Source of the DNA: a phage
DNA length: 64,000 nt
Reading direction: 5' to 3' (one strand)
Sequence record: PX915678.1
Position numbers and translations under genes: made by a program. Each line of letters starts with the position of its first letter. Positions within the stretch are counted from its first letter, which is position 1. Below the pieces are notes generated by a model that was given only the letters and a program-made list of their open reading frames with translations, ran no database searches and had not been told where the DNA came from. Of the stretch, positions 30,265 to 56,103 are shown one piece after another.

Positions 30265-30285
30265 TTTGTGTTCCTCCGTAGTTGA

Positions 30286-30639: not shown

Positions 30640-30728
30640 TCACCAGTTTAATTCTAGTCATCTTTTTAATGGCAGTCCATATAATCTATTTCTGAACTGC
30701 CTTTTTGTCGTAGAAGTCCTCTTATGAA

Positions 30729-31697: not shown

Positions 31698-31726
31698 TTT
31701 ATTCTCCAAATCCGTATCAGTTGATA

Positions 31727-31763
31727 GTTGTATAGTACCATAAAGCTTTATGCTTGTAAACCG
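31727..31763 (-). promoter_or_regulatory. T4 early promoter
   Basis: Minus strand GTTTACA, 17 nt, GGTACTATACAA upstream of the ATPase gene. Confidence 0.7.
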
Positions 31764-31784
31764 TTTTGTGAAAAAATTTTGAAA

Positions 31785-31810
31785 TAAAAAAGGGAGCCCG
31801 AAGGCTCCCT
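31785..31810 (-). terminator. Intrinsic terminator
   Basis: Minus strand GGGAGCCUUCGGGCUCCC then UUUUUUAUUU, right after the stop of ORF 31812-32825. Confidence 0.75.
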
Positions 31811-31811
31811 A

Positions 31812-33283: not shown

Positions 33284-33285
33284 AA

Positions 33286-33807: not shown

Positions 33808-33813
33808 ATTTCC

Positions 33814-34368: not shown

Positions 34369-34615
34369 GAATTTGTTTTAAAATTTTAGAGTATTCCTTT
34401 GTATCAGATTTACGTACAATCGATACACTATAAGGCATACTATCGGTGTCTTTTATAAAACGTTCCAAATGACACTCTAACAAAATTTCTGGGTTATAAA
34501 TCGTGTACATCAAATTACCTGTTGCTCCACGATATTGACAGATTTCTACTGATTGAGCGTCATTCCACAATTTTGTTAAGACTAAATCACCTACTTCTAA
34601 TTTCGGAAAGCTCAC
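34349..34615 (-). CDS. Hypothetical protein with no ATG start (possible GTG reinitiation after leader peptide)
   Basis: Track ORF begins at TTG right after an in-frame stop; first plausible start is GTG 34613-34615 within TAAUGUG of the upstream 19-codon ORF. Confidence 0.3.
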   Translation of the reverse strand: MSFPKLEVGDLVLTKLWNDAQSVEICQYRGATGNLMYTIYNPEILLECHLERFIKDTDSMPYSVSIVRKSDTKEYSKILKQIHANKKD

Positions 34616-34804
34616 ATTATTCACCAATTAAAGTTTCAATTAATTCTCTTAACTTAAAAGCTTGTTCACTTGTCATTACATACTCCTTTGAATAATATCA
34701 ATAATATTGTTCACCAGATTATAAGTAAACATTGGGTAATTATATTGAATCATCACATACACAACAAACAAAACTTTCATTCTCTTCTCCTTGGCAGTTG
34801 ACAA

Positions 34805-34840
34805 GATTACTATATCATAACCTTGCCAACTTGTAAACCA
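34805..34840 (-). promoter_or_regulatory. T4 early promoter
   Basis: Minus strand GGTTTACA, 17 nt, TGATATAGTAA. Confidence 0.6.
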
Positions 34841-35014
34841 TTAAATGACGTTTTCAATAAAATTCTGAAGCTTTGTGTGAGCATCAACCATAATTTTCAT
34901 TTCTTCCTTTGCGAAAGCTGTACCTCTTTCTCGAGCAGAATACTCATAGTCAGAAACTGCATTAGCATATTCTTCAATTAGCTTCATTAAAAACATCTGC
35001 TTTTCAGTTTTCAT
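34841..35014 (-). CDS. Hypothetical 57-aa protein (below track threshold)
   Basis: SD AGGTGGAATA before ATG; overlaps the upstream stop by 11 nt. Confidence 0.45.
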   Translation of the reverse strand: MKTEKQMFLMKLIEEYANAVSDYEYSARERGTAFAKEEMKIMVDAHTKLQNFIENVI

Positions 35015-35198
35015 TATTCCACCTAATCATTTCAAGATATTGAACTAACTTAGCTTTGGATTTATCCAAATCCTTTTTAGCTGCTTCTATACCATCGTAT
35101 GAGTATCCTTCACAATGCTCAACTGCCAATTGGTATGAATCTATTTCAATATCACGTGCTAATTTAATGATTTTTTCAAACTGTTCACGTGTTAGCAT
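35004..35198 (-). CDS. Hypothetical protein
   Basis: 64-aa ORF. Confidence 0.5.
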   Translation of the reverse strand: MLTREQFEKIIKLARDIEIDSYQLAVEHCEGYSYDGIEAAKKDLDKSKAKLVQYLEMIRWNNEN

Positions 35199-35200
35199 AC

Positions 35201-35404
35201 TTAAACTCTCGTATTATGATCGATAATTTCATCAAGAAACATATCTAAAGCTTCTACAGCATTATCAACTTTAGCTTCAAATTTTTCAATACCTTTATTT
35301 GCAATGCCTGACGAAAACCAGGCAAAGTCACTAAGTTCCTCATCTGCTTTGCGAATTAAAGCTACCAATTCTTTAATTTTATCTGCTTGTTCAATGCTAA
35401 TCAT
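35201..35404 (-). CDS. Hypothetical protein
   Basis: 67 aa from ATG 35402-35404 (TAATG overlap); track ORF extends to 35440. Confidence 0.45.
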   Translation of the reverse strand: MISIEQADKIKELVALIRKADEELSDFAWFSSGIANKGIEKFEAKVDNAVEALDMFLDEIIDHNTRV

Positions 35405-35591
35405 TATTCCACCACATATGAAAGAGAGAATATTGCACACGCCATGTGAGTTGCAGCTTCATCACACATATCATAACGTTTCTTAAGAAGTTCTACAAGT
35501 TCTTCACTAGTAACTTCATCCATGTCGACGAAAAAATCACCATTAATGATGACGTAGATATTTCCTTCTTGATTGAGTGCTTCAATTTTCA
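35404..35591 (-). CDS. Hypothetical acidic protein
   Basis: 62 aa from ATG at 35591 (SD AGGAG); first gene after early promoter at 35612. Confidence 0.5.
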
Positions 35592-35611
35592 TGATGTTCT
35601 CCTCTTTATCC

Positions 35612-35652
35612 GATAGTTGTATAGTATCACAGCACAAATGGAAAGTAAACCG
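35612..35652 (-). promoter_or_regulatory. T4 early promoter
   Basis: Minus strand GTTTAC, 17 nt, GTGATACTATACAA. Confidence 0.65.
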
Positions 35653-35659
35653 GTAAAAT

Positions 35660-35684
35660 GAAAAAAGTCTCCCGAAGGAGACTA
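35660..35684 (-). terminator. Intrinsic terminator
   Basis: Minus strand AGUCUCCUUCGGGAGACU then UUUUUUC, just after the stop of ORF 35688-36074. Confidence 0.75.
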
Positions 35685-35687
35685 ATG

Positions 35688-36074
35688 TTATTCGAGGGAA
35701 AGAAGATATTTACTCTGGTAAAACATCCCAGTAATATCATCTATCGTGCTTTGAATGGCTGGAGGCATTTCTTTATAAATGCTGTTAGATTGGTCTAGTA
35801 TGTGATCAATCATTTTAATTGTGTCAGTAGGAAGTTTACTGGCATCTGGAATAGAAGGCGTGTATTTTCTACCAGAATACCCCAAATATTGCTCACCAAA
35901 TTTATCAATCAAATCTGGCAACTCAGAGAAAATAAAATCGTATGCTTTGTGTCTAGCATAACTTTTAGTTTCAAAATGTGCAGAATGAAAATAAGCTTGT
36001 GCAGCCATTAATAAACCTAAGTATTCATCTGCCTTTGAAGGTTTTCCACTTTGTGAAAAGTCGCTGAATTTCAT
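35688..36074 (-). CDS. Hypothetical protein upstream of rI (T4 rI.-1 position)
   Basis: 128-aa ORF. Confidence 0.5.
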
Positions 36075-36364
36075 TCAGTCTCCAATTTAATGTTCATAAT
36101 TCTAGCGTATGATTGTGCCATCTCCGCGCCTCGCTCTATACATTCAAAATCGGAAGAGCACGGGTCATTTTTATAAGTCGTTCGCATAAAACTATAGAAC
36201 TGTTCAGATGATTCTACGCTTTTATTTTCAAAAAGCATATAAACATGTCTAATACCAGATTCCATAAATTTATCAAAATGAGGATCGACATTCGCTTCAA
36301 TCGGTGGAGATAAAACAAACGCTAATCCTAGCATGGCAAATAGTGCCGTTGCTTTTAAGGCCAT
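36071..36364 (-). CDS. rI: Lysis inhibition regulator rI (periplasmic antiholin)
   Basis: 97-aa ORF with signal-anchor MALKATALFAMLGLAFVL; matches T4 RI as recalled. Confidence 0.8.
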   Translation of the reverse strand: MALKATALFAMLGLAFVLSPPIEANVDPHFDKFMESGIRHVYMLFENKSVESSEQFYSFMRTTYKNDPCSSDFECIERGAEMAQSYARIMNIKLETE

Positions 36365-36376
36365 AAAGGCCTCCTA

Positions 36377-36589
36377 TCATTTTTGTCCTGTATTTACTTT
36401 ATGCCGATGCACGGCCTTAACTTTATCAAGGTATTTTTCAAAATTTCGCAATCTAGTATAGTCTGCCGGAGATTGGTTGAGTGATACTTCTCGACGCAAA
36501 GCTGAAATGATATTTCCAACTTCCCTACGAATTTCATCTAATTGAAGAACAGTAAGATTGCGAAGTTGCTTTTCAGTTAATTGTAGCAT
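36377..36589 (-). CDS. Hypothetical protein (rI.1 position)
   Basis: 70-aa ORF between tk and rI. Confidence 0.5.
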
Positions 36590-36631
36590 ATATACCCCTT
36601 TAGTTAGATAAACCTATTTATAACTTTTGCA

Positions 36632-37213
36632 CTAACCGAGCTTTTTAGTTAATTCATTCCAGTGTTTTCTACACAAAGAAACATAAATTTCATCACCAAT
36701 ACAGATTTGATTACCTTCTTTAACTGGTGTTCCATCTTCCATTAATCGAGCTGTCATAATCGCTTTTTTACCACAATGACAAACTGCTTTTAGTTCAATA
36801 AGTTTATCTGCAATCGCCAAAAGTTCTTTAGAACCTTCAAATAATTTTCCAGCGAAATCAGTCCTTAGACCATAAGCCATAACAGGAACATTATATGTAT
36901 CAACAATTCGGCTTAATTGATGCACCTGTTCAGTTTTTAAAAACTGAGCTTCATCTACAAATACACAATGAATATCTTTTTGTGCTTCAGCCCATTTATA
37001 GAACTCAAAAATATCCATATCATCCGTAATAATATTCGCTTCCTGTTTAATTCCAATGCGAGAAACGACTTCACAGACAGAATCGCGAGTATCAATAGCA
37101 GGCTTAAGAACTAATACACTCATTCCACGTTCTTTATAATTATGCGCAGCAGTCAAAAGAGAAGCAGATTTTCCAGCATTCATTGCTGCATAAGTAAAAA
37201 TTAAACTCGCCAT
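36632..37213 (-). CDS. tk: Thymidine kinase
   Basis: 193-aa ORF; P-loop AAMNAGKS; C-terminal zinc Cys pairs; T4 Tk length. Confidence 0.92.
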   Translation of the reverse strand: MASLIFTYAAMNAGKSASLLTAAHNYKERGMSVLVLKPAIDTRDSVCEVVSRIGIKQEANIITDDMDIFEFYKWAEAQKDIHCVFVDEAQFLKTEQVHQLSRIVDTYNVPVMAYGLRTDFAGKLFEGSKELLAIADKLIELKAVCHCGKKAIMTARLMEDGTPVKEGNQICIGDEIYVSLCRKHWNELTKKLG

Positions 37214-37222
37214 ATCACCTTC

Positions 37223-37408
37223 TTAAAGCGTATTCACATAAGCTATTAATTCATTTTCTTTCTTATCAAACCGATCAGCAAATTCTTCCTGCTGTTCGGG
37301 AGATAGCGGGCCGTATTCATCATAAAAGGTGTTTGCTTCTGTATGCTCATCTAGAAGTTCATGGATAAGCTCAAACAATTTATCTTTTTGTTCTTTACTC
37401 AGACTCAT
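37223..37408 (-). CDS. Hypothetical acidic protein
   Basis: 61-aa ORF. Confidence 0.5.
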   Translation of the reverse strand: MSLSKEQKDKLFELIHELLDEHTEANTFYDEYGPLSPEQQEEFADRFDKKENELIAYVNTL

Positions 37409-37578
37409 ATATTAATTTCCAGGAGTTTTAAAATAATTCGCTTTTGCTTAAATATTTCCACAGTTAAATGATCAGTATCTTTTTGACCGATTCCAATGGC
37501 AAAACCTTTATTAACAGCGAGTTCAATTAAATTATCAAGTTCACGTAACACTTCATATTGTAGCTCAGAACTATTCAT
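37405..37578 (-). CDS. Hypothetical 57-aa protein (below track threshold)
   Basis: SD GAAGG before ATG 37576-37578; ATGA overlaps at both ends. Confidence 0.45.
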   Translation of the reverse strand: MNSSELQYEVLRELDNLIELAVNKGFAIGIGQKDTDHLTVEIFKQKRIILKLLEINI

Positions 37579-37802
37579 TTCGGTTTACCTTCTTTAACGA
37601 AATCAGGATAAGGATAAAATCCTGAATAAAATCCTTCACCTTTGTGATTGGTGCATCCTTTATTAGAACAATAGCACCAATAATCGAAATCACAAGTCAT
37701 TTCATCATTACATAAAGCAAAAACAACTGGCCATTCACACTTTTCGCAGTGGGCATTTTTAAGAATACTAGTTTGGCTCATAACCATGTAACCTTTAAGC
37801 AA
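37575..37802 (-). CDS. Cys-rich small protein (likely zinc-binding)
   Basis: 75-aa ORF with 9 Cys (CEKCEW...CNDEMTCDFDYWCYCSNKGC). Confidence 0.5.
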   Translation of the reverse strand: MLKGYMVMSQTSILKNAHCEKCEWPVVFALCNDEMTCDFDYWCYCSNKGCTNHKGEGFYSGFYPYPDFVKEGKPK

Positions 37803-37990
37803 TATTCTTCTACGTGCTGTTTACGACCTTTCTTATCAATAAAGGTATATTCAACGAATGTTCCAATATAGTCTTTATCTACATCATGCGGACTATTAAT
37901 TGGGCATTTAGTACGGCAAATGCGTTCCCATTGACGAATAATTTCCACTTTGTTTTTAGGATCAAACGGATGCGGGTAATGTACTTTCAT
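37778..37990 (-). CDS. Hypothetical protein
   Basis: 70-aa ORF with Cys/His pairs. Confidence 0.45.
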   Translation of the reverse strand: MKVHYPHPFDPKNKVEIIRQWERICRTKCPINSPHDVDKDYIGTFVEYTFIDKKGRKQHVEEYCLKVTWL

Positions 37991-38441
37991 AATCCACCAC
38001 TATTAAATCAATATCAAGAGTAAACATGTCGATTAATTTAGAAACCTTATCCCAATCACCACCAGCAATACCGCAACCTATGCGTGGAATGTAAATTACT
38101 GGTTTAAACAAAAGGGTTTCTGCCTGTAGATTTAATTCTATCATGCAGTTTACTAAAGCACCATAATCAAGATTAGGACCCGGTTCATATTGCGTATACA
38201 GGTTATAGCATATACCAAATCCTGTAGGATTATGTTTAAAAACAATAGACATATCGCCTAATTTATCACGAGAACCGTACTCGGTAGTGGTTTTATCTAT
38301 TTCTAAAATTTTGGGATAGGCTCTTGCTAATTGACCTGCTACGCCAGAGCCCATTGTGTGGAAGCAATTACACCCGTGCGCAATAATATTACCTTGAAGA
38401 AATAGGGCGACAATATCGCCCTTGATATATTTTACAATCAT
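37962..38441 (-). CDS. Macro-domain protein (ADP-ribose binding or hydrolysing fold)
   Basis: 159-aa ORF; macro signatures GDIVAL...HGCNCFHTMGSGVAGQL and IGCGIAGGDW. Confidence 0.65.
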   Translation of the reverse strand: MIVKYIKGDIVALFLQGNIIAHGCNCFHTMGSGVAGQLARAYPKILEIDKTTTEYGSRDKLGDMSIVFKHNPTGFGICYNLYTQYEPGPNLDYGALVNCMIELNLQAETLLFKPVIYIPRIGCGIAGGDWDKVSKLIDMFTLDIDLIVVDYESTLPASV

Positions 38442-38785
38442 CTAGTACTCAATCCTCGATTATAAGAATCTACTAAACGGTCAACCATTGAATGACAAGC
38501 GGCTTTATCTTTCTCCTCCGCAACTGAACATTCTAAGGTATTCCACTTTTTAGCATATCGTTTTAACAATGTATCATTTTTGTATCTGCTTGATTTATCT
38601 CTTTCTCCGTCTTTATATGCATATATTAATTTCTGCGCAAATTCAGCTTGGCATGCTTTATTTTTCCCGCAATAATCCGCGGCAGTACGATTTACATACT
38701 CTCTAATTTCAGTATATGATGTATCTGCTGATGCAGAAGCAGAAAATGAAATTAATCCTATACATAAAACCAAAATTTTAGTCAT
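38438..38785 (-). CDS. Secreted protein, function unknown
   Basis: 115-aa ORF with cleavable signal peptide MTKILVLCIGLISFSASASA and Cys pairs. Confidence 0.5.
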   Translation of the reverse strand: MTKILVLCIGLISFSASASADTSYTEIREYVNRTAADYCGKNKACQAEFAQKLIYAYKDGERDKSSRYKNDTLLKRYAKKWNTLECSVAEEKDKAACHSMVDRLVDSYNRGLSTR

Positions 38786-39323
38786 TTACTATTTCCAAAA
38801 GTTTATTATTTTTAAGGTAATTAGCCTTTTCTAGGACTTCAGAAGCATATTTAGAACCTGCTTTAACATTCCATCCCGAATTATAAGAGGATATTGCTTT
38901 TCTTATATCGCCCTTATGTATATTTAACCAATAAGAAAGTTCAATGTACGCCCAGGAAGCTGAATTGGACCGTTTATTCAACATTCTTTTTATTTCAGCA
39001 TCGGTCATATTATAACCAAGTTCCTTAACTCTTGCTCGCATAGTTGGCAAATAATTTTGGAACATTCCATAGGCATGATGCTTTGGTTTAGATTTTAAAT
39101 TAACTCCGGCAGAGCTTTCTTGCCACAAAATAGCAGCCATTATATGACCCAATCCGCTCTTGTGGATATTTTTGTGTGTTTTATATTTTCCATCCTTAGA
39201 AAATTGTTCCCCGAATTGATATGCGTAACGCATGTTATCGAGTTGGACATTACTGAAAGTATGCTCGGAGCTATGCGCCATCATTGAAATGGCCAATAGA
39301 CCAGCGAGTAGTGCTTTTCTCAT
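38778..39323 (-). CDS. Secreted lytic transglycosylase-like (SLT domain) protein
   Basis: 181-aa ORF; signal peptide; SLT-like motifs ES...GMFQ and YNSG. Confidence 0.6.
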   Translation of the reverse strand: MRKALLAGLLAISMMAHSSEHTFSNVQLDNMRYAYQFGEQFSKDGKYKTHKNIHKSGLGHIMAAILWQESSAGVNLKSKPKHHAYGMFQNYLPTMRARVKELGYNMTDAEIKRMLNKRSNSASWAYIELSYWLNIHKGDIRKAISSYNSGWNVKAGSKYASEVLEKANYLKNNKLLEIVND

Positions 39324-39330
39324 GCTTACC

Positions 39331-39792
39331 TCATTGAGTTTTAATTACTGCTTTAGAAGCCTTTCCTGGTAAACGACGACTGTTGATAATTGCCATCCTG
39401 CATTGAAGCGACGGGTCTTTGAACTTCGCATTAGGTTTACAAACTGTAAATCCAAGCCAAAGATTTCCATCTGTAATTTCTAAACGTCCAGGACGGTATT
39501 CAACCCCATCAATAAAATCCTCGTCAATGTCAGGACGCGGAGGCATACTCAGGAATTCATTAACTTCTAAAACATGGTCTTTTATTTTGTGGAATAATTC
39601 AAAAACATATGTCTCATCAATCTCCCGTTGAATTGCACGATCAAGAAGATGCTGAGAATATTTTAGATGAAACGATGAGACCCCTGCTGCTTTTGATGCC
39701 TCACGAATCTCATTGTTAATTTGACGAAACTCCGACTCAAAGTGACGACGAAGCTTATTTCGACGGATAAAAACTTCTGTGTTGATAGTCAT
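39331..39792 (-). CDS. regB: RegB sequence-specific endoribonuclease
   Basis: 153-aa ORF; matches T4 RegB as recalled; early promoter upstream. Confidence 0.85.
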   Translation of the reverse strand: MTINTEVFIRRNKLRRHFESEFRQINNEIREASKAAGVSSFHLKYSQHLLDRAIQREIDETYVFELFHKIKDHVLEVNEFLSMPPRPDIDEDFIDGVEYRPGRLEITDGNLWLGFTVCKPNAKFKDPSLQCRMAIINSRRLPGKASKAVIKTQ

Positions 39793-39814
39793 GTTATTCT
39801 CCTCTTAACTGATA

Positions 39815-39851
39815 GAAAAATTATACCACAGTCAAGAGGAAAAGTAAACAG
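39815..39851 (-). promoter_or_regulatory. T4 early promoter of regB
   Basis: Minus strand GTTTAC, 16 nt, TGGTATAAT. Confidence 0.7.
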
Positions 39852-40130
39852 TTATTCTTTAAATCTAATCAATTTATTCATAGACTTTGAAACTTCTGCA
39901 CGGACCTCATGTAGGTTTTTAAGCTGTTCAAGACGTTGCTCATAGTAAGCAATTTCATCTTCTTCAAGACAGTCCTGTGAATCTTCTTTAAGATAACGTG
40001 CATAGTCCTGGAAAGCTTTACGGACTACTTCTTGGAAGTCATCAAGACTTTGAATTTTCTTAGGAGCAACAGATACACGACGAGGGGCAGTATAATACTC
40101 GTAACCAAACCCTGCGCTTAATTGAGCCAT
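39852..40130 (-). CDS. Hypothetical protein
   Basis: 92 aa from ATG at 40130 (SD GAGGAAAAA); track ORF extends to 40172. Confidence 0.45.
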
Positions 40131-40396
40131 TAATATTTTTCCTCTGGTTGGAACACAGCACGACAAGCCCACATACTGGCTTCTTTGAGTTTCGTTTTAG
40201 CAATAGTTAACTGATCGAGGCTTTCAGCATAATTCTTCGCGAATTCGCAGTCTTCACAATTATCTAGTGCTTCCCAGAATTCGTCATATAAAGCGTCAAA
40301 GATAAGTCCTAAACGAACTTCAGCATCTTTGATAGCATTCACTTTACCAATTTTCTCTTCAGTATGTGGCTTATAACCTTTAATATCTTCAATCAT
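40130..40396 (-). CDS. Hypothetical protein
   Basis: 88 aa from ATG at 40396 (SD GTGAGGAAG); track ORF extends to 40432. Confidence 0.45.
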
Positions 40397-40610
40397 ATTT
40401 GACTTCCTCACCAGTACATAAATCATATTCAACTAAACGAATAGGTTCATGAATGCCATATCCTTGAACAGAAATTTCTGTCGTAGGATAAATTCCATCA
40501 ATATCACCCATGGTCCACGCTTCATTAAATTGCTGTTCGCCTGAATTACTAAACCACTCGGCGAAAGCATTTAACACATCTTTAGAACCTTCAATAATTA
40601 TCTTTGCCAT
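40389..40610 (-). CDS. Hypothetical protein
   Basis: 73-aa ORF; 1-nt overlap with the upstream stop. Confidence 0.45.
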   Translation of the reverse strand: MAKIIIEGSKDVLNAFAEWFSNSGEQQFNEAWTMGDIDGIYPTTEISVQGYGIHEPIRLVEYDLCTGEEVKYD

Positions 40611-40972
40611 TACAAGCTCTCAGTAAAGGTACGAGCGATAACGTCGCGCTGCTGTTCCGGTGTCAGAGAGTTAAAGCGAACTGCATAACCGGATACACGG
40701 ATGGTCAGCTGCGGATATTTTTCCGGATGCTTAACTGCATCTTCCAGAGTTTCACGACGCAGAACGTTAACGTTCAGGTGTTGACCACCTTCAATTTTGA
40801 CTGTAGGCTGTGATTCAATTTCAATTTCACGGGTGTGCAAACCGTAGAAAATTTCTGGGTCTACAAAAGAGTCCTCTTTAAAGGTTTTAGAAACAATAAT
40901 TCGTGCTTGAATACCATCTTCAAAATAAATAGTACCTTTATGTGTGCCTTCAAGAATTTGATATGCTTTCAT
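40610..40972 (-). CDS. Autonomous glycyl radical cofactor (GrcA/YfiD-like spare-part protein)
   Basis: 120-aa ORF ending ...[61 protein letters not shown] with RVSGY glycyl radical motif; C-terminal half looks like E. coli GrcA as recalled. Confidence 0.8.
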
Positions 40973-40978
40973 ATAACC

Positions 40979-41359
40979 TCAATTAGAAAATAAATTTATC
41001 CAAGACTGTTCTTTAATTAAAAATGGCTCAGAATCATATGCCATTAAACTTTGGGTGATTAGTCCTTTAAAAGGTCCATCAATAAATTCCATGGTAAAAT
41101 ATGGAATTTTATTCATTAATCTTGCATTAGGAGCAGTACACAAAACTCTGCATCCTTTGAATACACCTTTTTGTAATTTGTATTGCTTAGGATAAAATTC
41201 GCTCAAGACGTTGTTATTTGCCAAAATTTCAAAATGATTCACCAATTTATTTTTAATAGTTTTTGGCGAAAAATAAAGATATTCGAAAAGCTGTGTGTCT
41301 GTCATCATTGCATTCCGATTACGAAAAACTGCGGACGAGTAATACCACCAGTGCAACAT
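40979..41359 (-). CDS. Hypothetical protein
   Basis: 126-aa ORF. Confidence 0.5.
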   Translation of the reverse strand: MLHWWYYSSAVFRNRNAMMTDTQLFEYLYFSPKTIKNKLVNHFEILANNNVLSEFYPKQYKLQKGVFKGCRVLCTAPNARLMNKIPYFTMEFIDGPFKGLITQSLMAYDSEPFLIKEQSWINLFSN

Positions 41360-41892
41360 TTACTATTGCAACAGTATTGTACAGTTTCAATATGAATATC
41401 GTAAATTTTATCCATATCGGGAGATTTAACCGGCTCATCGATTATATACAAAATCCGCGAAAGCGATAAACCTCTGAACTTGCTGCCTCTATTACCAACA
41501 AAACTACGGACAGAATCAGTAAATAAGCGGAATCGAATATCGTCACTAGAATAACGAGAAAATTCTTTTTTAATGTGGCCTGCAGAAATTTTAGCGTAAG
41601 CTGAAGTATTAGAAAGAACAATAACTGTTCCACCATCATACAGCCAATTAGCAGCAAAGTTAGTCACAGCAGTTGATTTACCGGATTGACGTCCACCATC
41701 TAGTCGAAGTGTACAATATTGTTTAAGCAAGTCTTCAAATGGTGGAATATAATCGTTTTTACAAATTTCTTCTACTCTAGCATCAGAATGGTGTGTAAAA
41801 GCATTCATCAGGGATAGATAAGGACCAGTTAAAAATGTTCTCATTTTATTCTCTCTAAATTTGGGCCATTCCATGGCGCATGAATTGTCCAT
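41305..41892 (-). CDS. P-loop NTPase, function unknown; start uncertain
   Basis: Walker A GGRQSGKST; several candidate ATGs, best SD before MRTFLT at about 41844. Confidence 0.5.
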   Translation of the reverse strand: MDNSCAMEWPKFRENKMRTFLTGPYLSLMNAFTHHSDARVEEICKNDYIPPFEDLLKQYCTLRLDGGRQSGKSTAVTNFAANWLYDGGTVIVLSNTSAYAKISAGHIKKEFSRYSSDDIRFRLFTDSVRSFVGNRGSKFRGLSLSRILYIIDEPVKSPDMDKIYDIHIETVQYCCNSKCCTGGITRPQFFVIGMQ

Positions 41893-41997
41893 TTCTGTAT
41901 TTACCCATTACCGCACTTGGGCTCGACCTTATTACAGGTTGGCGGGAATCCCTCATAGAATCATGAGGTCCAGCTTGTTCCCATATTTCTTATTTGC

Positions 41998-42471
41998 TTA
42001 TTTGAATGATTTGACGTACTGAATAGAGCCTTTGCTATTCACGAAAGCGATTTTACCATTTTTGTTATACATGGTAGCAGTACGCTGATAACCATAAGTT
42101 TGTTTACCAGATTGATAACCAACTAATGCGAAATTATCTTCACCCATTTTATTCTGCTTAGCGCGGATACGTTCATGACCGTGTGCCATAAGAACCTTAG
42201 CGTCGCCAGTTGCAATGGATCTACGAGTTTTTTCATCTTCAACTGTATTAACAAAATCGTCAAATGAATCAAATTTAGCATGAGATTTATTATACAGTTT
42301 TCCATCTACTGCATAATTATATCCCTGTACATCCATCTCAACTTCTGTACCATCATCCAATACAGCAGTGATTTTTTGACCTTTTTTAAATTTCAAAAGA
42401 TCAGTAAAAGATTCAGCGATAATTTGAGAATTAATAGCTGCTTCAGTGATAAATTCTTGATATGTTTTCAT
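41998..42471 (-). CDS. Internal head protein (IPII/IPIII-like) with capsid-targeting sequence
   Basis: 157-aa ORF starting MKTYQEFITEA, the T4 CTS cleaved by head protease; late promoter at 42506. Confidence 0.7.
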   Translation of the reverse strand: MKTYQEFITEAAINSQIIAESFTDLLKFKKGQKITAVLDDGTEVEMDVQGYNYAVDGKLYNKSHAKFDSFDDFVNTVEDEKTRRSIATGDAKVLMAHGHERIRAKQNKMGEDNFALVGYQSGKQTYGYQRTATMYNKNGKIAFVNSKGSIQYVKSFK

Positions 42472-42480
42472 GTGTTTCCT

Positions 42481-42897
42481 TTAAATGTAAATAGTTTTAC
42501 CGTAGTATTTATACCAGTATGGCTTCATTAAAATTTTTTCATCGAGTCGTTGTTGACTCAACTTAATAGCTGATTTGCATGGATTATAATCATTTTTCCA
42601 TTCTGCTGGAATATCGCTGATGTCAGGAACTTCAGTATCTTTTATACTAAACCCACGTTTTAAGCATTCCGTTATAATGTCTGATTGACGCTTTCGCAAA
42701 AATTCTAACTTATCGTAAAAGAACGTGACATGACCAGAACCTAAAATAAACTCGGAAGATATTTTAAAATCTTTAACCCGCTTACCATTTGCAACATGTT
42801 TACGAACTATACCAAAAACACGTGGCAATTCACGGTATTCTGCGATTAAATGTTGATCAGCAAGTTCAGATACTAAAGTCAAATTAATACGAGTCAT
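42481..42897 (-). CDS. denV: Endonuclease V (pyrimidine dimer DNA glycosylase)
   Basis: 138 aa from [17 protein letters not shown], matching T4 DenV as recalled; track ORF adds 12 codons. Confidence 0.88.
42506..42513 (-). promoter_or_regulatory. Late promoter (TATAAATA) for the internal protein gene
   Basis: Exact TATAAATA on minus strand about 35 nt upstream of ATG 42471. Confidence 0.6.
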
Positions 42898-42917
42898 TTT
42901 ATCCCTCCAAGTAACTG

Positions 42918-42955
42918 TGAATAATACTATCACAATTCTAGGAGAAAGTAAACAA
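42918..42955 (-). promoter_or_regulatory. T4 early promoter of denV
   Basis: Minus strand GTTTAC, 17 nt, TGATAGTATTAT. Confidence 0.6.
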
Positions 42956-42957
42956 CT

Positions 42958-43488
<531 letters not shown>

Positions 43489-43929
43489 TTAAAAGAGGCT
43501 GTTCATTATTCGGTAAAGTGAAGGACCCATCACATATTGCCACTGAGTACGAGGAATAAGGGCAAAAGCATCCATCTCTGGAATCATAACACCATCTTTA
43601 TTTTCAAAATAAGACTCGCAATGGCAATTTCTAAACATCTCATGCTCTACTGGAATCGTATAATAAAATAACTGCAAGTCTTTATTACTAGAATATTTAA
43701 ATACACCTAGGTCTTCTAGAAGGTCTGAATTATAATCGATAAAACCAGTCTCTTCTGAGCATTCTCTTTTTGCAGCTTCCAGTGCATTCAAATCAAAACT
43801 TTCTACACGGCCCTTTGGAATATCCCAGCGATGTGCCATCATTCCAGGTTTACGAGAACCAGTAACTCGTCCCATAAATAAATCTTTATCTTCTGTCATA
43901 AAGATAATACCAGCTGATAGTGTTTTCAT
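43489..43929 (-). CDS. nudE: Nudix hydrolase NudE
   Basis: 146 aa from ATG at 43929 (ATGA overlap); Nudix box GRVESFDLNALEAAKRECSEETGF. Confidence 0.7.
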   Translation of the reverse strand: MKTLSAGIIFMTEDKDLFMGRVTGSRKPGMMAHRWDIPKGRVESFDLNALEAAKRECSEETGFIDYNSDLLEDLGVFKYSSNKDLQLFYYTIPVEHEMFRNCHCESYFENKDGVMIPEMDAFALIPRTQWQYVMGPSLYRIMNSLF

Positions 43930-44414
43930 TTTAATTTCCTGCATTCAGTGATAAAGTTATTTAAATTTTGGGTATATTTCTTTTCATCAAAAATCTTTTG
44001 CTGCCTACGTAACCGCCATGGCATTTCAATGAACACGCACCATATTCCTGATATTACTGCTGTTATAAAAATATTAACAAGCAGAGTAAAAAGAGTCCAA
44101 TCTCCTATTCTATCCATTGGATTTTTTCCAAAGAAATAAAATACGAATGATGACACAGGAAGACTAATGATATACCATAAAAGCATATTCTTGCCTGTAA
44201 ACCAATCAGCGTTCGTTAACTTAGCACGACCGTTTTGAATACATACGAACTTATCATCTGTTACAGTAGATGGCTTAGCTGCTTGATATCCCATTCTAAA
44301 CTCCCTAATTAATCGTTTCTTTGTATCTTCAGAACAGCCGCTCCAGTCAACTCTATCAACTGAAATGCCATCGTCCCCATCATCTAAATCATACCAGCGA
44401 GTTTTTAAAATCAT
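43926..44414 (-). CDS. Membrane protein, paralog family (1 of 3)
   Basis: 162 aa from ATG at 44414; two hydrophobic helices then basic tail ending FITECRKLK. Confidence 0.5.
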   Translation of the reverse strand: MILKTRWYDLDDGDDGISVDRVDWSGCSEDTKKRLIREFRMGYQAAKPSTVTDDKFVCIQNGRAKLTNADWFTGKNMLLWYIISLPVSSFVFYFFGKNPMDRIGDWTLFTLLVNIFITAVISGIWCVFIEMPWRLRRQQKIFDEKKYTQNLNNFITECRKLK

Positions 44415-44785
44415 TTGATTTTCCTGCAATCACTCACAAACTCTTTCATTGATTCATTTTCAATATAAGATATGTAGTTATTATATTCTTTTAATTGTAT
44501 TTTGTAATCCTTTTTTCTTTGCCAATTTATTTTAAAATTATCATAATGAAAATATAAAATGATACTAAAGAATGAAAATAATGAAATTGCTATAGTATAA
44601 TGAAGTTCACTCCAAACTTCTATTATATCTACTATACCGCTGACGTTACTGCGGATGTTTAAAATAATACAGTCAATCGTTAATCCAATAAGACTACCAG
44701 CAAGAGCTGCAGCCAACGCCACAGCAAAAATTAAAAATGACTCATAAAAAGAATATTTGACTTTATTTAGTTTTGGCTTTTGCAT
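44411..44785 (-). CDS. Membrane protein, paralog family (2 of 3)
   Basis: 124-aa ORF; two TM helices; tail ends FVSDCRKIK. Confidence 0.5.
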   Translation of the reverse strand: MQKPKLNKVKYSFYESFLIFAVALAAALAGSLIGLTIDCIILNIRSNVSGIVDIIEVWSELHYTIAISLFSFFSIILYFHYDNFKINWQRKKDYKIQLKEYNNYISYIENESMKEFVSDCRKIK

Positions 44786-45180
44786 CGTGATTCCTTAACA
44801 AATTTCATAATTTCATCAAATTCATACGCAGCAAGTTTAAGCTGATGTTCTTTTTTAATCTTTTTGCACTGGGCTTTCCAATCACGTACACGTTTACGAT
44901 AGTGTCTTCCTTGATACCAGTATCCTACCCAATTTACAGGTACTAATAAAAACGGAACTACCAATGGAAGAATTAGTGTTGCTCCAAATATTACACCAGA
45001 TTCAATATCAGTCATAACGTCTATAACCATTCCAGCAATCAGCAGAATCACAAATGATACAGCTACCACAGGACCTATTAATACATCAGTAGGAATTAGC
45101 TGACGCTTTGGTTCATACTTCACAGGTTTACTTGGAAGGTATAGTGATGGCTTTGACATATTCTCTACATTCCTTAACAA
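44767..45180 (-). CDS. Membrane protein, paralog family (3 of 3)
   Basis: 137-aa ORF; two TM helices; tail ends FVKESRCKSQN. Confidence 0.5.
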   Translation of the reverse strand: MLRNVENMSKPSLYLPSKPVKYEPKRQLIPTDVLIGPVVAVSFVILLIAGMVIDVMTDIESGVIFGATLILPLVVPFLLVPVNWVGYWYQGRHYRKRVRDWKAQCKKIKKEHQLKLAAYEFDEIMKFVKESRCKSQN

Positions 45181-48068: not shown

Positions 48069-48371
48069 CTTGCGGCAACCTTGTCGGGGTTCCACCTGCT
48101 AAGGCAAGTGTTTGTACGAAACGCCGGGATTCGAACCCGGTTATTAAGCAGTTGACGCTACTCAATATTTTTTAAAAGGCCATATCTCGACCATATCCGA
48201 ACGTTCCGTCAAAAACGCTACTCGGCTTACGGCAAAGATATTTCCTCGAATCGATAATTCGGTGCGCCGTTTCAGCTGTGATAGTAAAGAACCAGAACAC
48301 AGTAAAACTGTGGGAGGAACTATACTCCAGGGAGCATCAATCCGACGACTTACCGGTAGCGACCCGGTTTC
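48068..48371 (-). ncRNA. Candidate stable structured RNA(s) (T4 rnaC/rnaD-like position)
   Basis: About 300 nt with no credible minus-strand ORF, tRNA-like T-arm CCGGGUUCGAAUCCCGG, bounded by the tRNA cluster side and a terminator. Confidence 0.3.
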
Positions 48372-48738: not shown

Positions 48739-48814
48739 TGGTCGAGGCAGTAGGGATCGAACCTACGACCTAGGACTTAGAAGGTCCTTGCTCTTCCTTC
48801 TGAGCTATGCCTCG
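48739..48814 (-). tRNA. tRNA-Arg (anticodon UCU)
   Basis: Hand-folded cloverleaf; acceptor CGAGGCA/UGCCUCG; anticodon loop CUUCUAA; encoded CCA. Confidence 0.8.
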
Positions 48815-48818
48815 TATT

Positions 48819-48893
48819 TGGCGGACGTGATAGGATTCGAACCTATAACCAATCGCTTAACAGGCGATCGCTCTGCCATTGAGCTACACATCC
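48819..48893 (-). tRNA. tRNA-Asn (anticodon GUU)
   Basis: Acceptor GGAUGUG/CACGUCC; anticodon stem AUCGC/GCGAU with loop CUGUUAA; T-loop UUCGAAU; encoded CCA. Confidence 0.75.
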
Positions 48894-48897
48894 AAAT

Positions 48898-48984
48898 TGG
48901 TGGGGAGTGATGGAGTCGAACCACCCGAGTCGCAATGACAATGAATTTACAGTCCACACCGCTACCTCTACGGGATAACTCCCC
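48898..48984 (-). tRNA. tRNA-Tyr (anticodon GUA), class II with long variable arm
   Basis: Acceptor GGGGAGU/ACUCCCC; loop CUGUAAA on a stem with two G-U pairs; variable arm UGUCAUUGCGACUCG; encoded CCA. Confidence 0.6.
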
Positions 48985-48997
48985 TTAATTCTTAATT

Positions 48998-49072
48998 TGG
49001 TGGCCCTGGGTGGAATTGAACCACCATCTGGCGATTATGAGTCGCTTGCTTGAACCTTCCAGCTACAGGGCC
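48998..49072 (-). tRNA. tRNA with CAU anticodon (Ile2-type if lysidine-modified, otherwise Met)
   Basis: Acceptor GGCCCUG/CAGGGCC; anticodon loop CUCAUAA; encoded CCA. Confidence 0.7.
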
Positions 49073-49073
49073 T

Positions 49074-49149
49074 TGGTGCTGATTGACGGAATCGAACCGC
49101 CGACCTTCTCATTACAAGTGAGTTGCTCTACCTACTGAGCTAAATCAGC
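49074..49149 (-). tRNA. tRNA-Thr (anticodon UGU)
   Basis: Acceptor GCUGAUU/AAUCAGC; anticodon loop CUUGUAA; encoded CCA. Confidence 0.8.
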
Positions 49150-49154
49150 AAAAC

Positions 49155-49244
49155 TGGCGGAGGCGATAGGATTTGAACCTATGAGTCGCCGGAGCGACTG
49201 CCGGTTTTCAAGACCGGTGCATTAAACCACTCTGCCACGCCTCC
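49155..49244 (-). tRNA. tRNA-Ser (anticodon UGA), class II
   Basis: Acceptor GGAGGCG/CGCCUCC; anticodon stem CCGGU/ACCGG with loop CUUGAAA; long variable arm; encoded CCA. Confidence 0.8.
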
Positions 49245-49246
49245 AG

Positions 49247-49320
49247 TCTCCATACAAGGATTTGAACCTTGGACCTCCTGATCCCAAATCAGGCGCTCTA
49301 CCAAACTGAGCTACACGGAG
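49247..49320 (-). tRNA. tRNA-Pro (anticodon UGG), CCA not encoded
   Basis: Acceptor CUCCGUG/UAUGGAG; anticodon loop UUUGGGA; 3' end runs A-C-U straight into tRNA-Ser. Confidence 0.75.
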
Positions 49321-49330
49321 TAAATTAAAT

Positions 49331-49404
<74 letters not shown>

Positions 49405-49409
49405 AAATT

Positions 49410-49496
49410 TGGTGCGAGAAGTGGGACTCGAACCCACAAGGAAATCATTCCGCAGCATTTTAAGTGCTGTGCCTTTACCAATTTGACCATTCTCGC
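49410..49496 (-). tRNA. tRNA-Leu (anticodon UAA), class II
   Basis: Acceptor GCGAGAA/UUCUCGC; anticodon stem CAGCA/UGCUG with loop CUUAAAA; encoded CCA. Confidence 0.8.
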
Positions 49497-49497
49497 G

Positions 49498-49570
49498 CTG
49501 GGAATAAAGGACTCGAACCTTTGCATCTAGCAGTCAAAGTGCTATGCCTTACCAACTTGGCTAATTCCCA
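49498..49570 (-). tRNA. tRNA-Gln (anticodon UUG), CCA not encoded
   Basis: Acceptor UGGGAAU/AUUCCCA; anticodon stem UAGCA/UGCUA with loop CUUUGAC; 3' end G-C then tRNA-Leu. Confidence 0.75.
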
Positions 49571-52129: not shown

Positions 52130-52130
<1 letters not shown>

Positions 52131-52843
52131 TATAGTACCTTTAGTGTATTTTCAATTTTAGAAAAAAGTTCTTCAAGAGAACCATCGTTTGTAATTACTA
52201 AATCGCCATCACGAATTGGCAATCCAGCTTCTGTAATATGTGTATCATTGGATTTTTGACCAGGACGAACTACATGAATTACTGTAGCACCCATCGCCCT
52301 AGCCGCATCCATTTCATGATCTTGACGAGTATCAGGAACGATATAGTAATCATAACCTGAGTTAAATTTATCAAGATAATCTAAAGCAAATAATTTTACC
52401 CAATACATGCGGTCGAAGTTATTAACAATCAAATCCGTACCTAGGGCTTGCATCAGACGACGGACTGACCATTGATCTTCAATATTATTTATAACGTCAG
52501 CAATCTTGTTAAATGCTACGAAATTAACTGCGTCATCAAAAACAAACACGCCTTTAATTGGGCTTTTACTATTAAGATAGCAAAATGCTTGTTCCATAAT
52601 CGTAATTACTTCTAATTTAGTCAGATTTAAATTAGTCTCACGATCATAGTCAATTCCTTCAAACTCTTTACGAGTTAAGCAAGGATAGTCAGTGCTTGCT
52701 GCAAATACACCCCATGCATAAGCCAATGCATCTTTAATAGGACCAGCAAGTTGATATTTAACTGCAGAATAATTTTCCATGATAAAATCTGCAGTAGTAT
52801 CTTTTCCACTACGCTTTACACCACTTAAAAAGATTAGTTTCAT
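52130..52843 (-). CDS. 1: dNMP kinase gp1
   Basis: 237-aa ORF; P-loop SGVKRSGKDT. Confidence 0.9.
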
Positions 52844-52892
52844 ATGTTTCTCCTCAAATTTAGTTAAGATTATAACACATGAAACTGAAGCA

Positions 52893-53423
52893 TTAAACTT
52901 CTGCTATAATTTTGCCATCTTTTTCTACTTGAAAATACGTATAAGGAATCGTTGCTGTGCATACTAAGGCTGGGTCTGAATCTTCCGTGTAGCTAAATTC
53001 TACTTCAGAGAGGTCAGAAACCCAAGGCTTATAAAAATTTATTGACATCACGATTTCAGTTTTACTATTATCTAAAATGTAAAGCGTAATGTATTCAGGA
53101 CCTGTTTTTTGGGCAGTATTTTCGCCTGTAAGATAGTTACTAGTTCCTAGCATCCATTCATACATTCCTATCCATGACTTAAGCTCTTCATCAACTATAA
53201 ATCTCACGATGAGTGGATCATACTCAAATGTAACTCCTGGACGCTGTGCTCGGCCTAGTCCAAACGGCCCAGTCACGGTATCAGTAACAGGTATCCTAAT
53301 TCCTGGAATAGGAACTGACTGAGCATTTAAAGTAAAAGCAGATGTAGTATTACTATGTGGTATTGATACTACAAAGTTAGTTGTATTTGCTTGGTTAAAA
53401 ATTTGTTGTAGTGCTTGCGACAT
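52893..53423 (-). CDS. 3: Tail tube terminator protein gp3
   Basis: 176 aa from MSQALQQIFNQ (SD GAGGAA); track ORF extends 27 codons upstream. Confidence 0.85.
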   Translation of the reverse strand: MSQALQQIFNQANTTNFVVSIPHSNTTSAFTLNAQSVPIPGIRIPVTDTVTGPFGLGRAQRPGVTFEYDPLIVRFIVDEELKSWIGMYEWMLGTSNYLTGENTAQKTGPEYITLYILDNSKTEIVMSINFYKPWVSDLSEVEFSYTEDSDPALVCTATIPYTYFQVEKDGKIIAEV

Positions 53424-53529
53424 ATATTCCTCATAATGCTTCATAAATGTTGGTGGTATAATGGGTCTAAGTCCCTTCCATTCAATTCCAATTAGAACAA
53501 ACAATAGAAAAGAATGGAAGATAATAGAA

Positions 53530-54204
53530 TTAATTTATTAGACTTCTTAAACGAGCAGAAGTCATAAATGGAAATTTTTCTAAAGTTGGCTTTCGCCAAT
53601 ATCTTGGATGACAAGTTGATTTAAAATCAAGAACAATTTTCTTTGCTTCATCAATAGTGTTAACTCCAAAGTTATCTAACATTATTTTCTTTTCTTTTTC
53701 CCACCGTTTATTAGCTAAAGCAGATTGAAGCTTTTTGTTTTTAAATGTGTCATTTTTTCTAGAATGAGTTGTGCCTTGTGTCGGACTCCATCCTCTTCCT
53801 AAAATAAATCCCTCAGGAATTATATCTCCATCATGTAATTTTATACATCTTTTACCATTATTATAATATTTTCGTCCAGTTTGTGTATTTGAAATATTAT
53901 TTGCATGTTTTCTTTTTAACCAACCATAAACTTTATTATTTCTCCTAACATATTTAGTTGAAACCGTCATTTTTATGGCTGCATAAGATAATTTTAAAGA
54001 ATTTGGGTGTATTTTTACTAATAGCTGATGTGCAACATAATGCTCTTCTGGAGTTAAATCAACCAAGTTAGAAGCATCATTACTACCGCCTAAACATTTC
54101 GGAATAATATGATGTCTTTCTTTATATCCAGTAAGGGCTCTATTGCGAGCCCTATCAATTAGTGAATTATAAATTTTTTCATAATTCATCGTACATTGCT
54201 CCAA
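53530..54204 (-). mobile_element. HNH homing endonuclease gene inserted between genes 2 and 3
   Basis: 224-aa ORF with HNH motif ERHHIIPKCLGGSNDASNLVDLTPEEHYVAH; start overlaps the gp2 3' end. Confidence 0.8.
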
Positions 54205-55013
54205 ACTTTGTTTGCAGAGAAACGTTTTCCTTTGGAGTAGAAGCTTTGGAGTGGCATTAACACAACGTTCGCCCAGTCTTTCGGGGCGATTTCAACAAGG
54301 CTACCCATAATATTACCAGGTATATATGCCTTAATCATTTGGTCTGCACCCCTAAATCCTTTCACTTGACTCCAATCAATTTTTAATTTCGTTTTATTAG
54401 TAATAGTAGGTGTATTTGAATATTGCTTTAAAAGCTCTTCTAGAAATTGCTGACGAGCTTTAGGTGGAATATAGTGCAAGTTCAATCCGTACATTAAATT
54501 ATGTTTACCTAAACCAAGGTAAATTATCAAAGGAAATTTATCCCAGTAAGGAAGAGTTTCCTTGTGTTTAGCATCATAAGCAAAAGCATATATTCGTCCC
54601 GGCTGCGGGCGAACAACTTTATGTCCTTTTACTTGTTTAATAGTTTCAGCAAACCACTTTTTGGTTTTATTATTAATTGCTGCACCTTCATTACGAATTT
54701 TATCACGCAATGTTTGCCTGAATGAATTTATCATAAGCAGTTGTCTTTCTTGCTTATTGAGTTTATTCATTGGTTTTGATTCAAGCTTTTGAATCTTTTC
54801 AGCTGTTTTAATTCCTGAAGAATATTTTGACATTGCTGAAGTAAACGTAGAGTATTTGATTCCTCTTTCTTCAGCAAATTGCTTTCCTGTCATTCCTTTT
54901 GCTTTGGCCTTTTTGTATTCAAGACCTATCTGAATCCATTTCTTTTCGTTTAATGATTGCTTAACCTTTGGAACTTGGGGAGTGCTTTCATTAATTATTT
55001 GAAAAATAGCCAT
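54186..55013 (-). CDS. 2: DNA end protector protein gp2
   Basis: 275-aa ORF; position and length as T4 gp2. Confidence 0.85.
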
Positions 55014-55465
55014 TATGCCCCCTTAAAGCCAAGAGCTCGTAATCCATCTTCTGTTAGAATTCTAAATTTTATTCCACGCTTTTCAGCTAAAGCTTGCGCT
55101 GCTTTCCATTTGTCAGTATTAACGGAATATGTATAAATTTCATTCATAAATCTTTTCTTCGCTGCAGTTGTTAGATGTGCCGGTTTAACTGGTGGTTGTG
55201 TTTCTTTTTTAGGTTTTATTTCAATAAAAAATTCTTGTCCAGAAGAATCTTTCATCCAAATATCCATGAAGTATCTACGTTTTTTCCCTTCTGCATTACA
55301 AAAATAAGGAATTACTGCTGTTTCACTACCCCATGCAATAATTTCTGGATTTTTATCTAACCATTCAAAAAAGAATTTTTCCCAATTTGATCTATACGTA
55401 ATTTTTTTAGGGTCACCTCTATATTTTGATATATTTTTAGGAACCCATTTTCCAGAATATGCCAT
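55013..55465 (-). CDS. 4: Head completion protein gp4
   Basis: 150-aa ORF; divergent from 53; late promoter upstream. Confidence 0.85.
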
Positions 55466-55476
55466 TGGATTCTCCT

Positions 55477-55484
55477 TATAAATA
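55477..55484 (+). promoter_or_regulatory. Late promoter (TATAAATA) for gene 53 operon
   Basis: Exact plus-strand TATAAATA 29 nt before ATG 55513. Confidence 0.65.
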
Positions 55485-55491
55485 GATAATA

Positions 55492-55499
55492 TATTTATA
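55492..55499 (-). promoter_or_regulatory. Late promoter (TATAAATA) for gene 4
   Basis: Exact minus-strand TATAAATA about 27 nt before ATG 55465. Confidence 0.65.
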
Positions 55500-55512
55500 A
55501 ACAGGAGGGCCC

Positions 55513-56103
55513 ATGCTCTTTACATTTTTTGATCCGATTGAATATGCGGCCAAAACGGTGAATAAAAACGCGCCGACTATTCCTATGACAGATATTTTTA
55601 GAAACTATAAAGACTATTTCAAACGTGCTCTTGCGGGATACCGCTTACGTACTTATTATATTAAAGGTTCACCACGCCCGGAAGAATTAGCAAATGCTAT
55701 ATATGGAAATCCGCAGTTGTATTGGGTTTTATTGATGTGTAATGATAATTATGATCCGTATTATGGATGGATTACTTCGCAAGAAGCTGCTTATCAAGCA
55801 TCTATACAAAAATACAAAAACGTAGGTGGAGACCAAATAGTATATCATGTGAATGAGAATGGTGAAAAATTTTATAATTTAGTATCATATGATGATAATC
55901 CATATGTTTGGTATGACAAAGGCGATAAAGCTAGAAAATATCCTCAATATGAAGGAGCACTTGCTGCGGTCGATACGTATGAAGCTGCTGTTCTTGAAAA
56001 TGAAAAACTTCGTCAAATAAAAATAATAGCAAAATCAGACATCAATTCATTTATGAACGACCTTATACGTATAATGGAGAAATCTTATGGAAATGATAAG
56101 TAA
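55513..56103 (+). CDS. 53: Baseplate wedge protein gp53
   Basis: 196-aa ORF; SD GGAGG. Confidence 0.9.
   Translation: MLFTFFDPIEYAAKTVNKNAPTIPMTDIFRNYKDYFKRALAGYRLRTYYIKGSPRPEELANAIYGNPQLYWVLLMCNDNYDPYYGWITSQEAAYQASIQKYKNVGGDQIVYHVNENGEKFYNLVSYDDNPYVWYDKGDKARKYPQYEGALAAVDTYEAAVLENEKLRQIKIIAKSDINSFMNDLIRIMEKSYGNDK

Follow-up and report, generated by a model that had tools for sequence, protein, structure and literature searches.

The open reading frame located between genes 2 and 3 of the T4-like phage studied here is, with good confidence, a free-standing homing endonuclease gene of the T4 Mob type. The stretch analyzed, hereafter called the window, comprises the 64,000 nt of sequence record PX915678.1. 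The gene itself is already known, its GenBank annotation going back to the RB32 genome of 2006: it is the same gene as RB32ORF146c of Escherichia phage RB32 (ABI94970.1), which is 100% identical over 219 AA, is likewise placed between genes 2 and 3 and shows the same ATGA overlap. Further copies are present in RB33, HY03, vB_EcoM_112, fPS-2, a51 and other phages. Among the T-even phages, free-standing endonuclease genes of the HNH and GIY-YIG families are well documented as a source of differing gene content and of local exclusion of markers. The finding is therefore an ordinary one, and its significance beyond bookkeeping is small. What our analysis adds is the delimitation of the cassette to the base, including its own recoded gene 2 tail with ribosome-binding and coupling signals, a concrete candidate target and immunity site, and the recognition of an endonuclease lineage tied to gene 2 across genera; some of the existing labels ('mobB', 'hypothetical protein') can be corrected as well.

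The mechanical ORF list contains a minus-strand frame of 224 AA at 53530..54204, which starts with TTG and includes ERHHIIPKCLGGSNDASNLVDLTPEEHYVAH, so that the 224-AA frame with an HNH motif placed by an earlier note between genes 2 and 3 is indeed present. The ATG at 54189..54187 is a likelier start than the TTG at 54204. Read from this codon, the gene extends over 53530..54189 on the minus strand (219 AA plus stop; PHROG 655), and its length and sequence are those of RB32ORF146c. The ATG overlaps the TGA stop codon of gene 2 (54188..54186) as ATGA and is preceded by GGAG 9 nt upstream; the claimed overlap of the start with the coding end of gene 2 was thus borne out, with the start refined to 54189. 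The upstream host gene is gene 2, encoding the DNA end protector of 275 AA (54186..55013, minus strand; ORF list, PF26869 on homologues), with gene 4 (55013..55465, minus strand) located upstream of it. Downstream lies gene 3, which encodes the tail completion or sheath stabilizer protein of 176 AA read from the ATG at 53423 (52893..53423, minus strand; Pfam PF06841, E 1.5e-12), followed by gene 1 (52130..52843, minus strand) and then by 57A and 57B. Beside this minus-strand 4-2-endonuclease-3-1 block, genes 53 and 5 run divergently on the plus strand. The endonuclease gene is free-standing and leaves both of its host genes intact, being placed between the stop codon of gene 2 and the spacer that precedes gene 3.

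Pairwise junction alignments with T4, together with a junction alignment of 12 genomes, delimit an inserted cassette of 668 bp (53533..54200, minus strand), which takes the place of 9 bp in T4, TCAAATATC, corresponding to the last three codons of gene 2. T4 homology stops at the TGG codon of gene 2 (54203..54201) and restarts at a TAA triplet (53532..53530), which is the gene 2 stop codon in T4 and the endonuclease stop codon here. The cassette flanks are collinear with T4 at 95.6-97.5% identity in the junction alignments, and the 106-bp spacer before gene 3 (53424..53529, minus strand) is collinear with the T4 spacer between genes 2 and 3. In agreement with the earlier note, T4 carries no gene at this position, only the 106-bp spacer. 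The recoded gene 2 tail (54186..54203, minus strand) reads TGG AGC AAT GTA CGA TGA (W-SNVR, then stop) vs. TGG TCA AAT ATC TAA (W-SNI, then stop) in T4, and it provides both the GGAG, formed at the TGG-AGC junction, and the ATGA overlap of start and stop. At the 3' end of the endonuclease gene, AAGTCTAATAAATTAA resembles AAGTCTGGTCAAATATCTAA at the 3' end of gene 2, and the version found in Salmonella phage Manna is T4-like. Such a resemblance may hint at an origin of the endonuclease 3' end by duplication and degeneration of that of gene 2.

The encoded protein matches the PHROG 655 'homing endonuclease' profile over residues 1-199 (E 9.9e-59), and 2933 database proteins match at E<=1e-5. Its HNH catalytic motif, ERHHIIPKCLGGSNDASNLVDLTPEEHYVAH (residues 24-54; 54028..54120, minus strand), is predicted to adopt a beta-beta-alpha arrangement and is supported by an alignment of 44 homologues and by a match of the family profile to McrA. 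The HNH residues are retained on this alignment: H26, H27, N41, H50 and H54 are invariant in all 44 homologues, which share 36-64% identity. When the family profile was compared with the HNH domain of EcoKMcrA (E 0.0026), residues 21-50 were matched and the HH..N..H residues aligned. Pfam matches stay below the gathering score (17.8 bits vs. 27.5 for HNH_5, 16.5 vs. 21.4 for HNH), and this is a matter of model sensitivity, the Mob-type domain diverging from the Pfam seeds, and no defining biological feature. NCBIfam gave only a sub-threshold IscB HNH match, and the PDB sequence search with the single protein gave one spurious match only (E 0.28). Homologues of the HNH domain from ICP1 were among the tblastn matches.

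The AlphaFold (AF2) model, with a pLDDT of 88.4, places strands at residues 24-27 and 42-45 and a helix at 47-60, so that a beta-beta-alpha element is seen at 24-60; further on it shows a beta-hairpin at 107-118, a disordered linker at 135-149 and then four C-terminal helices. A Foldseek search against the PDB returned HNH domains as the top matches, all with E > 0.5, and no significant fold match. The N-terminal, Mob-like nuclease domain comprises residues 1-114 (53848..54189, minus strand) and is defined by its similarity to MobB and MobE. The C-terminal half, residues 115-219 (53533..53847, minus strand), is conserved only in homologues adjoining gene 2 and is presumably the DNA-binding and specificity region.

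The distribution of the gene was examined by megablast with positions 52800..55100 as the query against 50,697 phage records, of which 513 matched, almost all of them from Tequatrovirus. The gene is not universal at the 2-3 junction. A full-length insert is present in 37 of the 513 matching records (about 7%) and a deletion remnant in one more, counts in which certain phages appear twice (GenBank and RefSeq records) and the database records are non-independent samples. Non-carrier records, which cover about 71% of the query and are T4-like without the insert, make up about 93% of close relatives. By tblastn, the protein is at least 99% identical in 35 records and 95-99% identical in 3 records. 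The carriers have E. coli, Shigella, Yersinia and Salmonella as their hosts. Presence of the gene does not track the relatedness of the flanks, since those of the empty phage LF73P3 are 98.9% identical to the window and thus closer to it than those of the carrier RB32 (97.7%).

Four copies are decayed: two are frameshifted (FL23 and FL44), one is fused to gene 3 (Manna) and one is reduced to a remnant (CT01). In both FL23 and FL44 a 1-nt deletion splits the endonuclease ORF. Salmonella phage Manna has an altered 3' end, and the ORF continues into gene 3 and is annotated as a hypothetical protein of 431 AA. The Manna 3' end (about 1755..1775 of its locus) is AGAAGTCAAATATCTAA, equal to the T4 gene 2 tail GTCTGGTCAAATATCTAA minus 5 nt, where the window has AGAAGTCTAATAAATTAA; this hints that the last codons of the endonuclease gene may be derived from a duplicated gene 2 tail. 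Shigella phage CT01 (1112..1285 of its locus) retains a 174-bp remnant ORF of 57 AA that lacks the HNH domain; its 486-bp internal deletion apparently occurred between short ATTGAT repeats, and the ATGA coupling to gene 2 is kept.

Among carriers, the cassette diverges by 0.3-0.9% vs. 1.6-2.8% for the adjacent 1100 nt (the end of gene 4 plus gene 2), and is thus 3-6 times less divergent than the flanking genes. Fisher tests of cassette vs. flank gave p values of 0.001 for the window-RB32 pair, 0.006 for window-FL23 and 0.08-0.09 for two other pairs. The window and RB32 differ at only 2 nt across the 668-bp cassette. Such low diversity, as read from the alignments, fits a recent spread of the cassette; it could also have come about if a single recent ancestor carried the gene at this locus and the flanks recombined afterwards. 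In the 12 genomes aligned, the left flank is a mosaic in which polymorphisms are shared with empty genomes in all combinations, and, the cassette aside, perfect agreement with presence of the gene is seen at a single flank position, 4 nt from the boundary (GTT vs. GTC). Overall, sporadic presence, invariant HNH residues, sharp cassette edges and decayed copies support the claim of the earlier note that the gene is a free-standing homing endonuclease. Neither presence of the gene in all relatives nor loss of the HNH residues was observed, and both results favor this interpretation.

Full-length homologues with 46-63% identity occur outside Tequatrovirus, and every one examined lies directly after gene 2. 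The gene 2-linked loci are those of P479, Konradin, Serratia phages SP1 and 4S and four metagenomic contigs; the homologue from Gaprivervirus P479 is 60% identical and that from the Acinetobacter Lazarusvirus Konradin (subfamily Twarogvirinae) 54% identical. In 9 of 9 homologous loci the start codon overlaps the gene 2 stop codon or is no more than 3 nt away from it. Metagenomic contig SRR13090265_42399 (92..2221) carries gene 2, the endonuclease gene, a gp4-like gene with a TnsA-like N domain and then unrelated genes. As the downstream neighbor is here gp4-like rather than gene 3, the constant partner of the endonuclease is gene 2. The 4-2-3-1 block is rearranged in this contig, and the endonuclease gene remains joined to gene 2; translation of the gene at this locus does not reproduce the query protein exactly. 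A separate observation concerns P479 (1033..1680 of its locus) and Konradin (1018..1668 of its locus), in which a second, unrelated endonuclease gene is located between genes 4 and 2; its N-terminus, YTVYQITNKINNKIYIGV, has a GIY-YIG seg-type look, and gene 2 of these two phages is bracketed by two selfish genes.

We infer that the target of the endonuclease is the 3' end of gene 2. A polymorphic cluster of 9 substitutions in 16 nt (54234..54249, minus strand), with CTCCAAAGCTTCTACTCC here vs. CTTCAGCAGTTCGTTTCA in T4, is found 30-50 nt upstream of the cassette boundary. It recodes LQQFVS of T4 to LQSFYS, whereas identity to the T4 counterpart is 97.5% in the rest of the gene. Between the cluster and the cassette, the junction alignments show a conserved 29-nt block, AAAGGAAAACGTTTCTCTGCAAACAAAGT (54205..54233, minus strand), which encodes the C-terminus of gp2, is identical in all Tequatrovirus alleles, both carrier and empty, and is nearly identical in two distant phages. 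The window-type cluster sequence (at least 95% identity) is present in 53 of 539 records, namely all 38 carriers and about 15 empty genomes, the latter otherwise keeping a T4-type gene 2 end; the T4-type cluster occurs in none of the Tequatrovirus carriers. By analogy, we consider the cluster a candidate nicking or immunity site and the conserved block a candidate binding site, assignments to which we give close to an even chance. The association of cluster and gene is equally compatible with plain linkage over 27 bp. A role of the cluster as a universal immunity determinant was ruled out, as carrier P479 has a T4-like sequence there.

The broader proposition would be that of an old homing endonuclease lineage dedicated to the 3' end of gene 2 across genera and subfamilies of Straboviridae, which recognizes the KGKRFSA-coding block, and for which the change from LQQFVS to LQSFYS is the Tequatrovirus immunity allele, also circulating alone as a resistant empty site. 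We advance it tentatively, thinking it somewhat more apt to be wrong than right. If true, it would offer a natural three-haplotype system (susceptible-empty, resistant-empty and carrier) for the homing cycle in phage populations.

A T4-type late promoter box, TATAAATA, located upstream of gene 4 (55492..55499, minus strand), is the only promoter consensus upstream of the endonuclease gene on its strand. It is one of two back-to-back TATAAATA boxes between genes 4 and 53, the other being on the plus strand at 55477..55484. In a sigma-70 promoter scan of 52800..55600 the sites were not in excess of shuffled sequences, and a terminator scan of the same interval revealed none in or after the endonuclease gene on its strand. 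No MotA-box middle-promoter pattern was found upstream of the endonuclease gene, the nearest one (52892..52867) being upstream of gene 1. In the whole window, the MotA-box-like pattern TGCTTYA-N11-13-TANNNT occurs 16 times vs. 2.5 expected, mostly on the minus strand, an abundance that is as expected for T4 middle promoters. Because the late box before gene 4 is the only promoter found, with no MotA or sigma-70 promoter and no terminator detected, the endonuclease gene is probably carried, together with genes 4 and 2, on a late 4-2-3 transcript, its translation being coupled to that of gene 2. An RNA hairpin over the start codon and the GGAG was considered as a regulatory element and rejected, since it has z = -1.98 in the window but 9 homologous loci show no structure conserved among them, and a hairpin in the spacer before gene 3 was not significant (z = -0.98).

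In the mechanism that we propose, the protein would combine an N-terminal HNH nuclease domain, a flexible linker and a lineage-specific C-terminal region that presumably binds DNA. With no promoter of its own, the gene would depend on late transcription that starts at the promoter upstream of gene 4 and also covers genes 4 and 2, and its translation would be coupled to that of gene 2 by the ATGA overlap and the GGAG of the recoded tail. During co-infection with a relative that lacks the gene, the enzyme would bind the conserved gene 2 3' end and nick or cut nearby, as MobA and MobE suggest by analogy; recombinational repair would then copy the 668-bp cassette and a little of its flanks from the carrier, resulting in local marker exclusion. 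Gene 2 of the carrier would be shielded by the insertion itself and possibly also by the 9-substitution cluster. Enzymatic activity, nicking or double-strand cleavage, the target site, expression timing, homing and marker exclusion are all features that we infer, and in a limited literature search we found no biochemical, genetic or functional study of the protein.

A different account would be that the gene is a now-immobile relic, which has kept its HNH fold and lost homing, as exemplified by I-TevIII in T4, and which is maintained through hitch-hiking or through its linkage to essential late genes. Decay is visible in some copies (FL23, FL44, Manna and CT01), as this account would have it, and MobB, MobC and MobD of T4 are likewise without demonstrated activity (PMC2988022). 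Against it, 35 of 38 copies encode an intact protein of at least 99% identity, homologues of 36-64% identity all keep the catalytic residues, the lineage is present at the same site in several genera, and the cassette is less diverse than its flanks, which points to a recent spread and not to an ancient residence. We consider loss of mobility unlikely. The idea of a spurious or mis-called frame that happens to contain an HNH-like string draws on the mechanical TTG start and on the sub-threshold Pfam HNH matches; it is refuted by the PHROG 655 match (E 1e-58), thousands of homologues and the invariant catalytic residues, as well as being at odds with the AF2 pLDDT of 88 and with independent annotation in dozens of genomes, and we give it practically no weight.

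The tight, conserved link to gene 2 with translational coupling would also be expected of a domesticated nuclease, serving either in genome-wide exclusion of competing phages or in DNA processing together with gp2. Homing endonuclease-like genes are known to act in phage-parasite conflicts, which lends this explanation some credit, and the presumed late expression would coincide with packaging. However, about 93% of close relatives do without the gene, frameshifted or deleted copies are found in phages that were isolated and propagated, and a site conserved beside a conserved coding block is what homing predicts. Domestication thus seems to us improbable, more so than the persistence of an immobile relic, and a mobile, free-standing homing endonuclease gene of the Mob type remains the preferred reading.

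Elsewhere in the window, no paralogue of the HNH domain was found by tblastn. The ORF map of 1..45000 contains no ORF of at least 200 AA at the positions of T4 segA, mobB, mobC, mobD and segB, and an nrdD-sized ORF of 605 AA (20619..22436) is uninterrupted, so that there is no I-TevII intron; gene identities over 1..45000, for example that of an alpha-gt-sized ORF at 14914..16116, were assigned by size and order only. From the empty T4 sites and the uninterrupted nrdD-sized ORF, the phage seems to be without T4's endonuclease genes over 1..45000 while carrying one that is absent from T4. The tRNA array at 48739..49570 contains 10 tRNAs (Arg, Asn, Tyr, Met/Ile-CAT, Thr, Ser, Pro, Gly, Leu and Gln) vs. 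8 in T4. The Asn and Tyr tRNAs lie between the Arg and CAT tRNAs, which is the position of segB in T4 according to the table in PMC2988022. An additional ARAGORN call at 48114..48209 (96 nt, two-base anticodon) has no Rfam support. In a51, a carrier and close relative, a further HNH endonuclease gene (15835..16443 of its locus) abuts the tRNA array, and there is an extra tRNA-His; the window has neither.

The RB32 record of 2006 describes the gene as 'putative site-specific intron-like DNA endonuclease; similar to mobB; not conserved from T4 position'. A review from 2010 tallies two mob-like HNH genes in RB32 without naming them (PMC2993671), and the RB32 copy is presumably one of these. Over residues 1-114, identity to MobB of RB59 (species Tequatrovirus T4; E 2e-30) amounts to 45%. 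Both genes are free-standing and neither has demonstrated activity; they differ in that the C-terminal halves are unrelated, that MobB is located between alpha-gt and alpha-gt.2 and the window gene between genes 2 and 3, and that an upstream promoter of its own has been reported for MobB (PMC2988022), whereas none was found for the window gene. Orthology to T4 mobB was therefore ruled out, since the similarity ends at residue 114 and the location is not alpha-gt. Database labels for the gene include 'mobB' (CAM-21, OP611477.1), 'hypothetical protein', 'HNH endonuclease' and 'homing endonuclease'; because the C-terminus and the site differ from those of MobB, the CAM-21 label reflects family resemblance and not orthology.

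A parallel in anatomy is offered by MobE, an HNH endonuclease encoded between nrdA and nrdB with nrdB as its target, to which the window protein is about 45% identical over residues 1-111, the HNH domain. MobE is promoterless and reliant on upstream transcription (PMC2790892), and the window gene is likewise without a promoter that we could find. In phages lacking MobE, the enzyme nicks a polymorphic stretch beside a conserved coding block in the neighboring gene, and carriers differ from empty genomes by clustered substitutions at the nick site (PMC2790892). The three-haplotype pattern described here parallels this model, in which a conserved block is bound, a polymorphic stretch is nicked and substitutions protect the carrier. 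The two systems differ in their host genes and C-terminal domains, and MobE has an internal terminator, whereas none was found in the window gene; nicking and homing were shown for MobE and are proposed for the window gene by analogy.

In general, mob genes combine an HNH domain with a distinct C-terminal region, and MobA and MobE nick a single strand (PMC2988022, PMC2790892). The window gene agrees with this class in its homologous N-terminal HNH domain, distinct C-terminus, free-standing site and sporadic presence. A similar plan, with an HNH nuclease followed by an extended DNA-binding region, is shared with I-HmuI of Bacillus phage SPO1, a nicking enzyme of solved structure (PMC2988022). 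Unlike the window gene, I-HmuI is intron-encoded, and no similarity between the two was detected when the PDB was searched by sequence, profile and fold.
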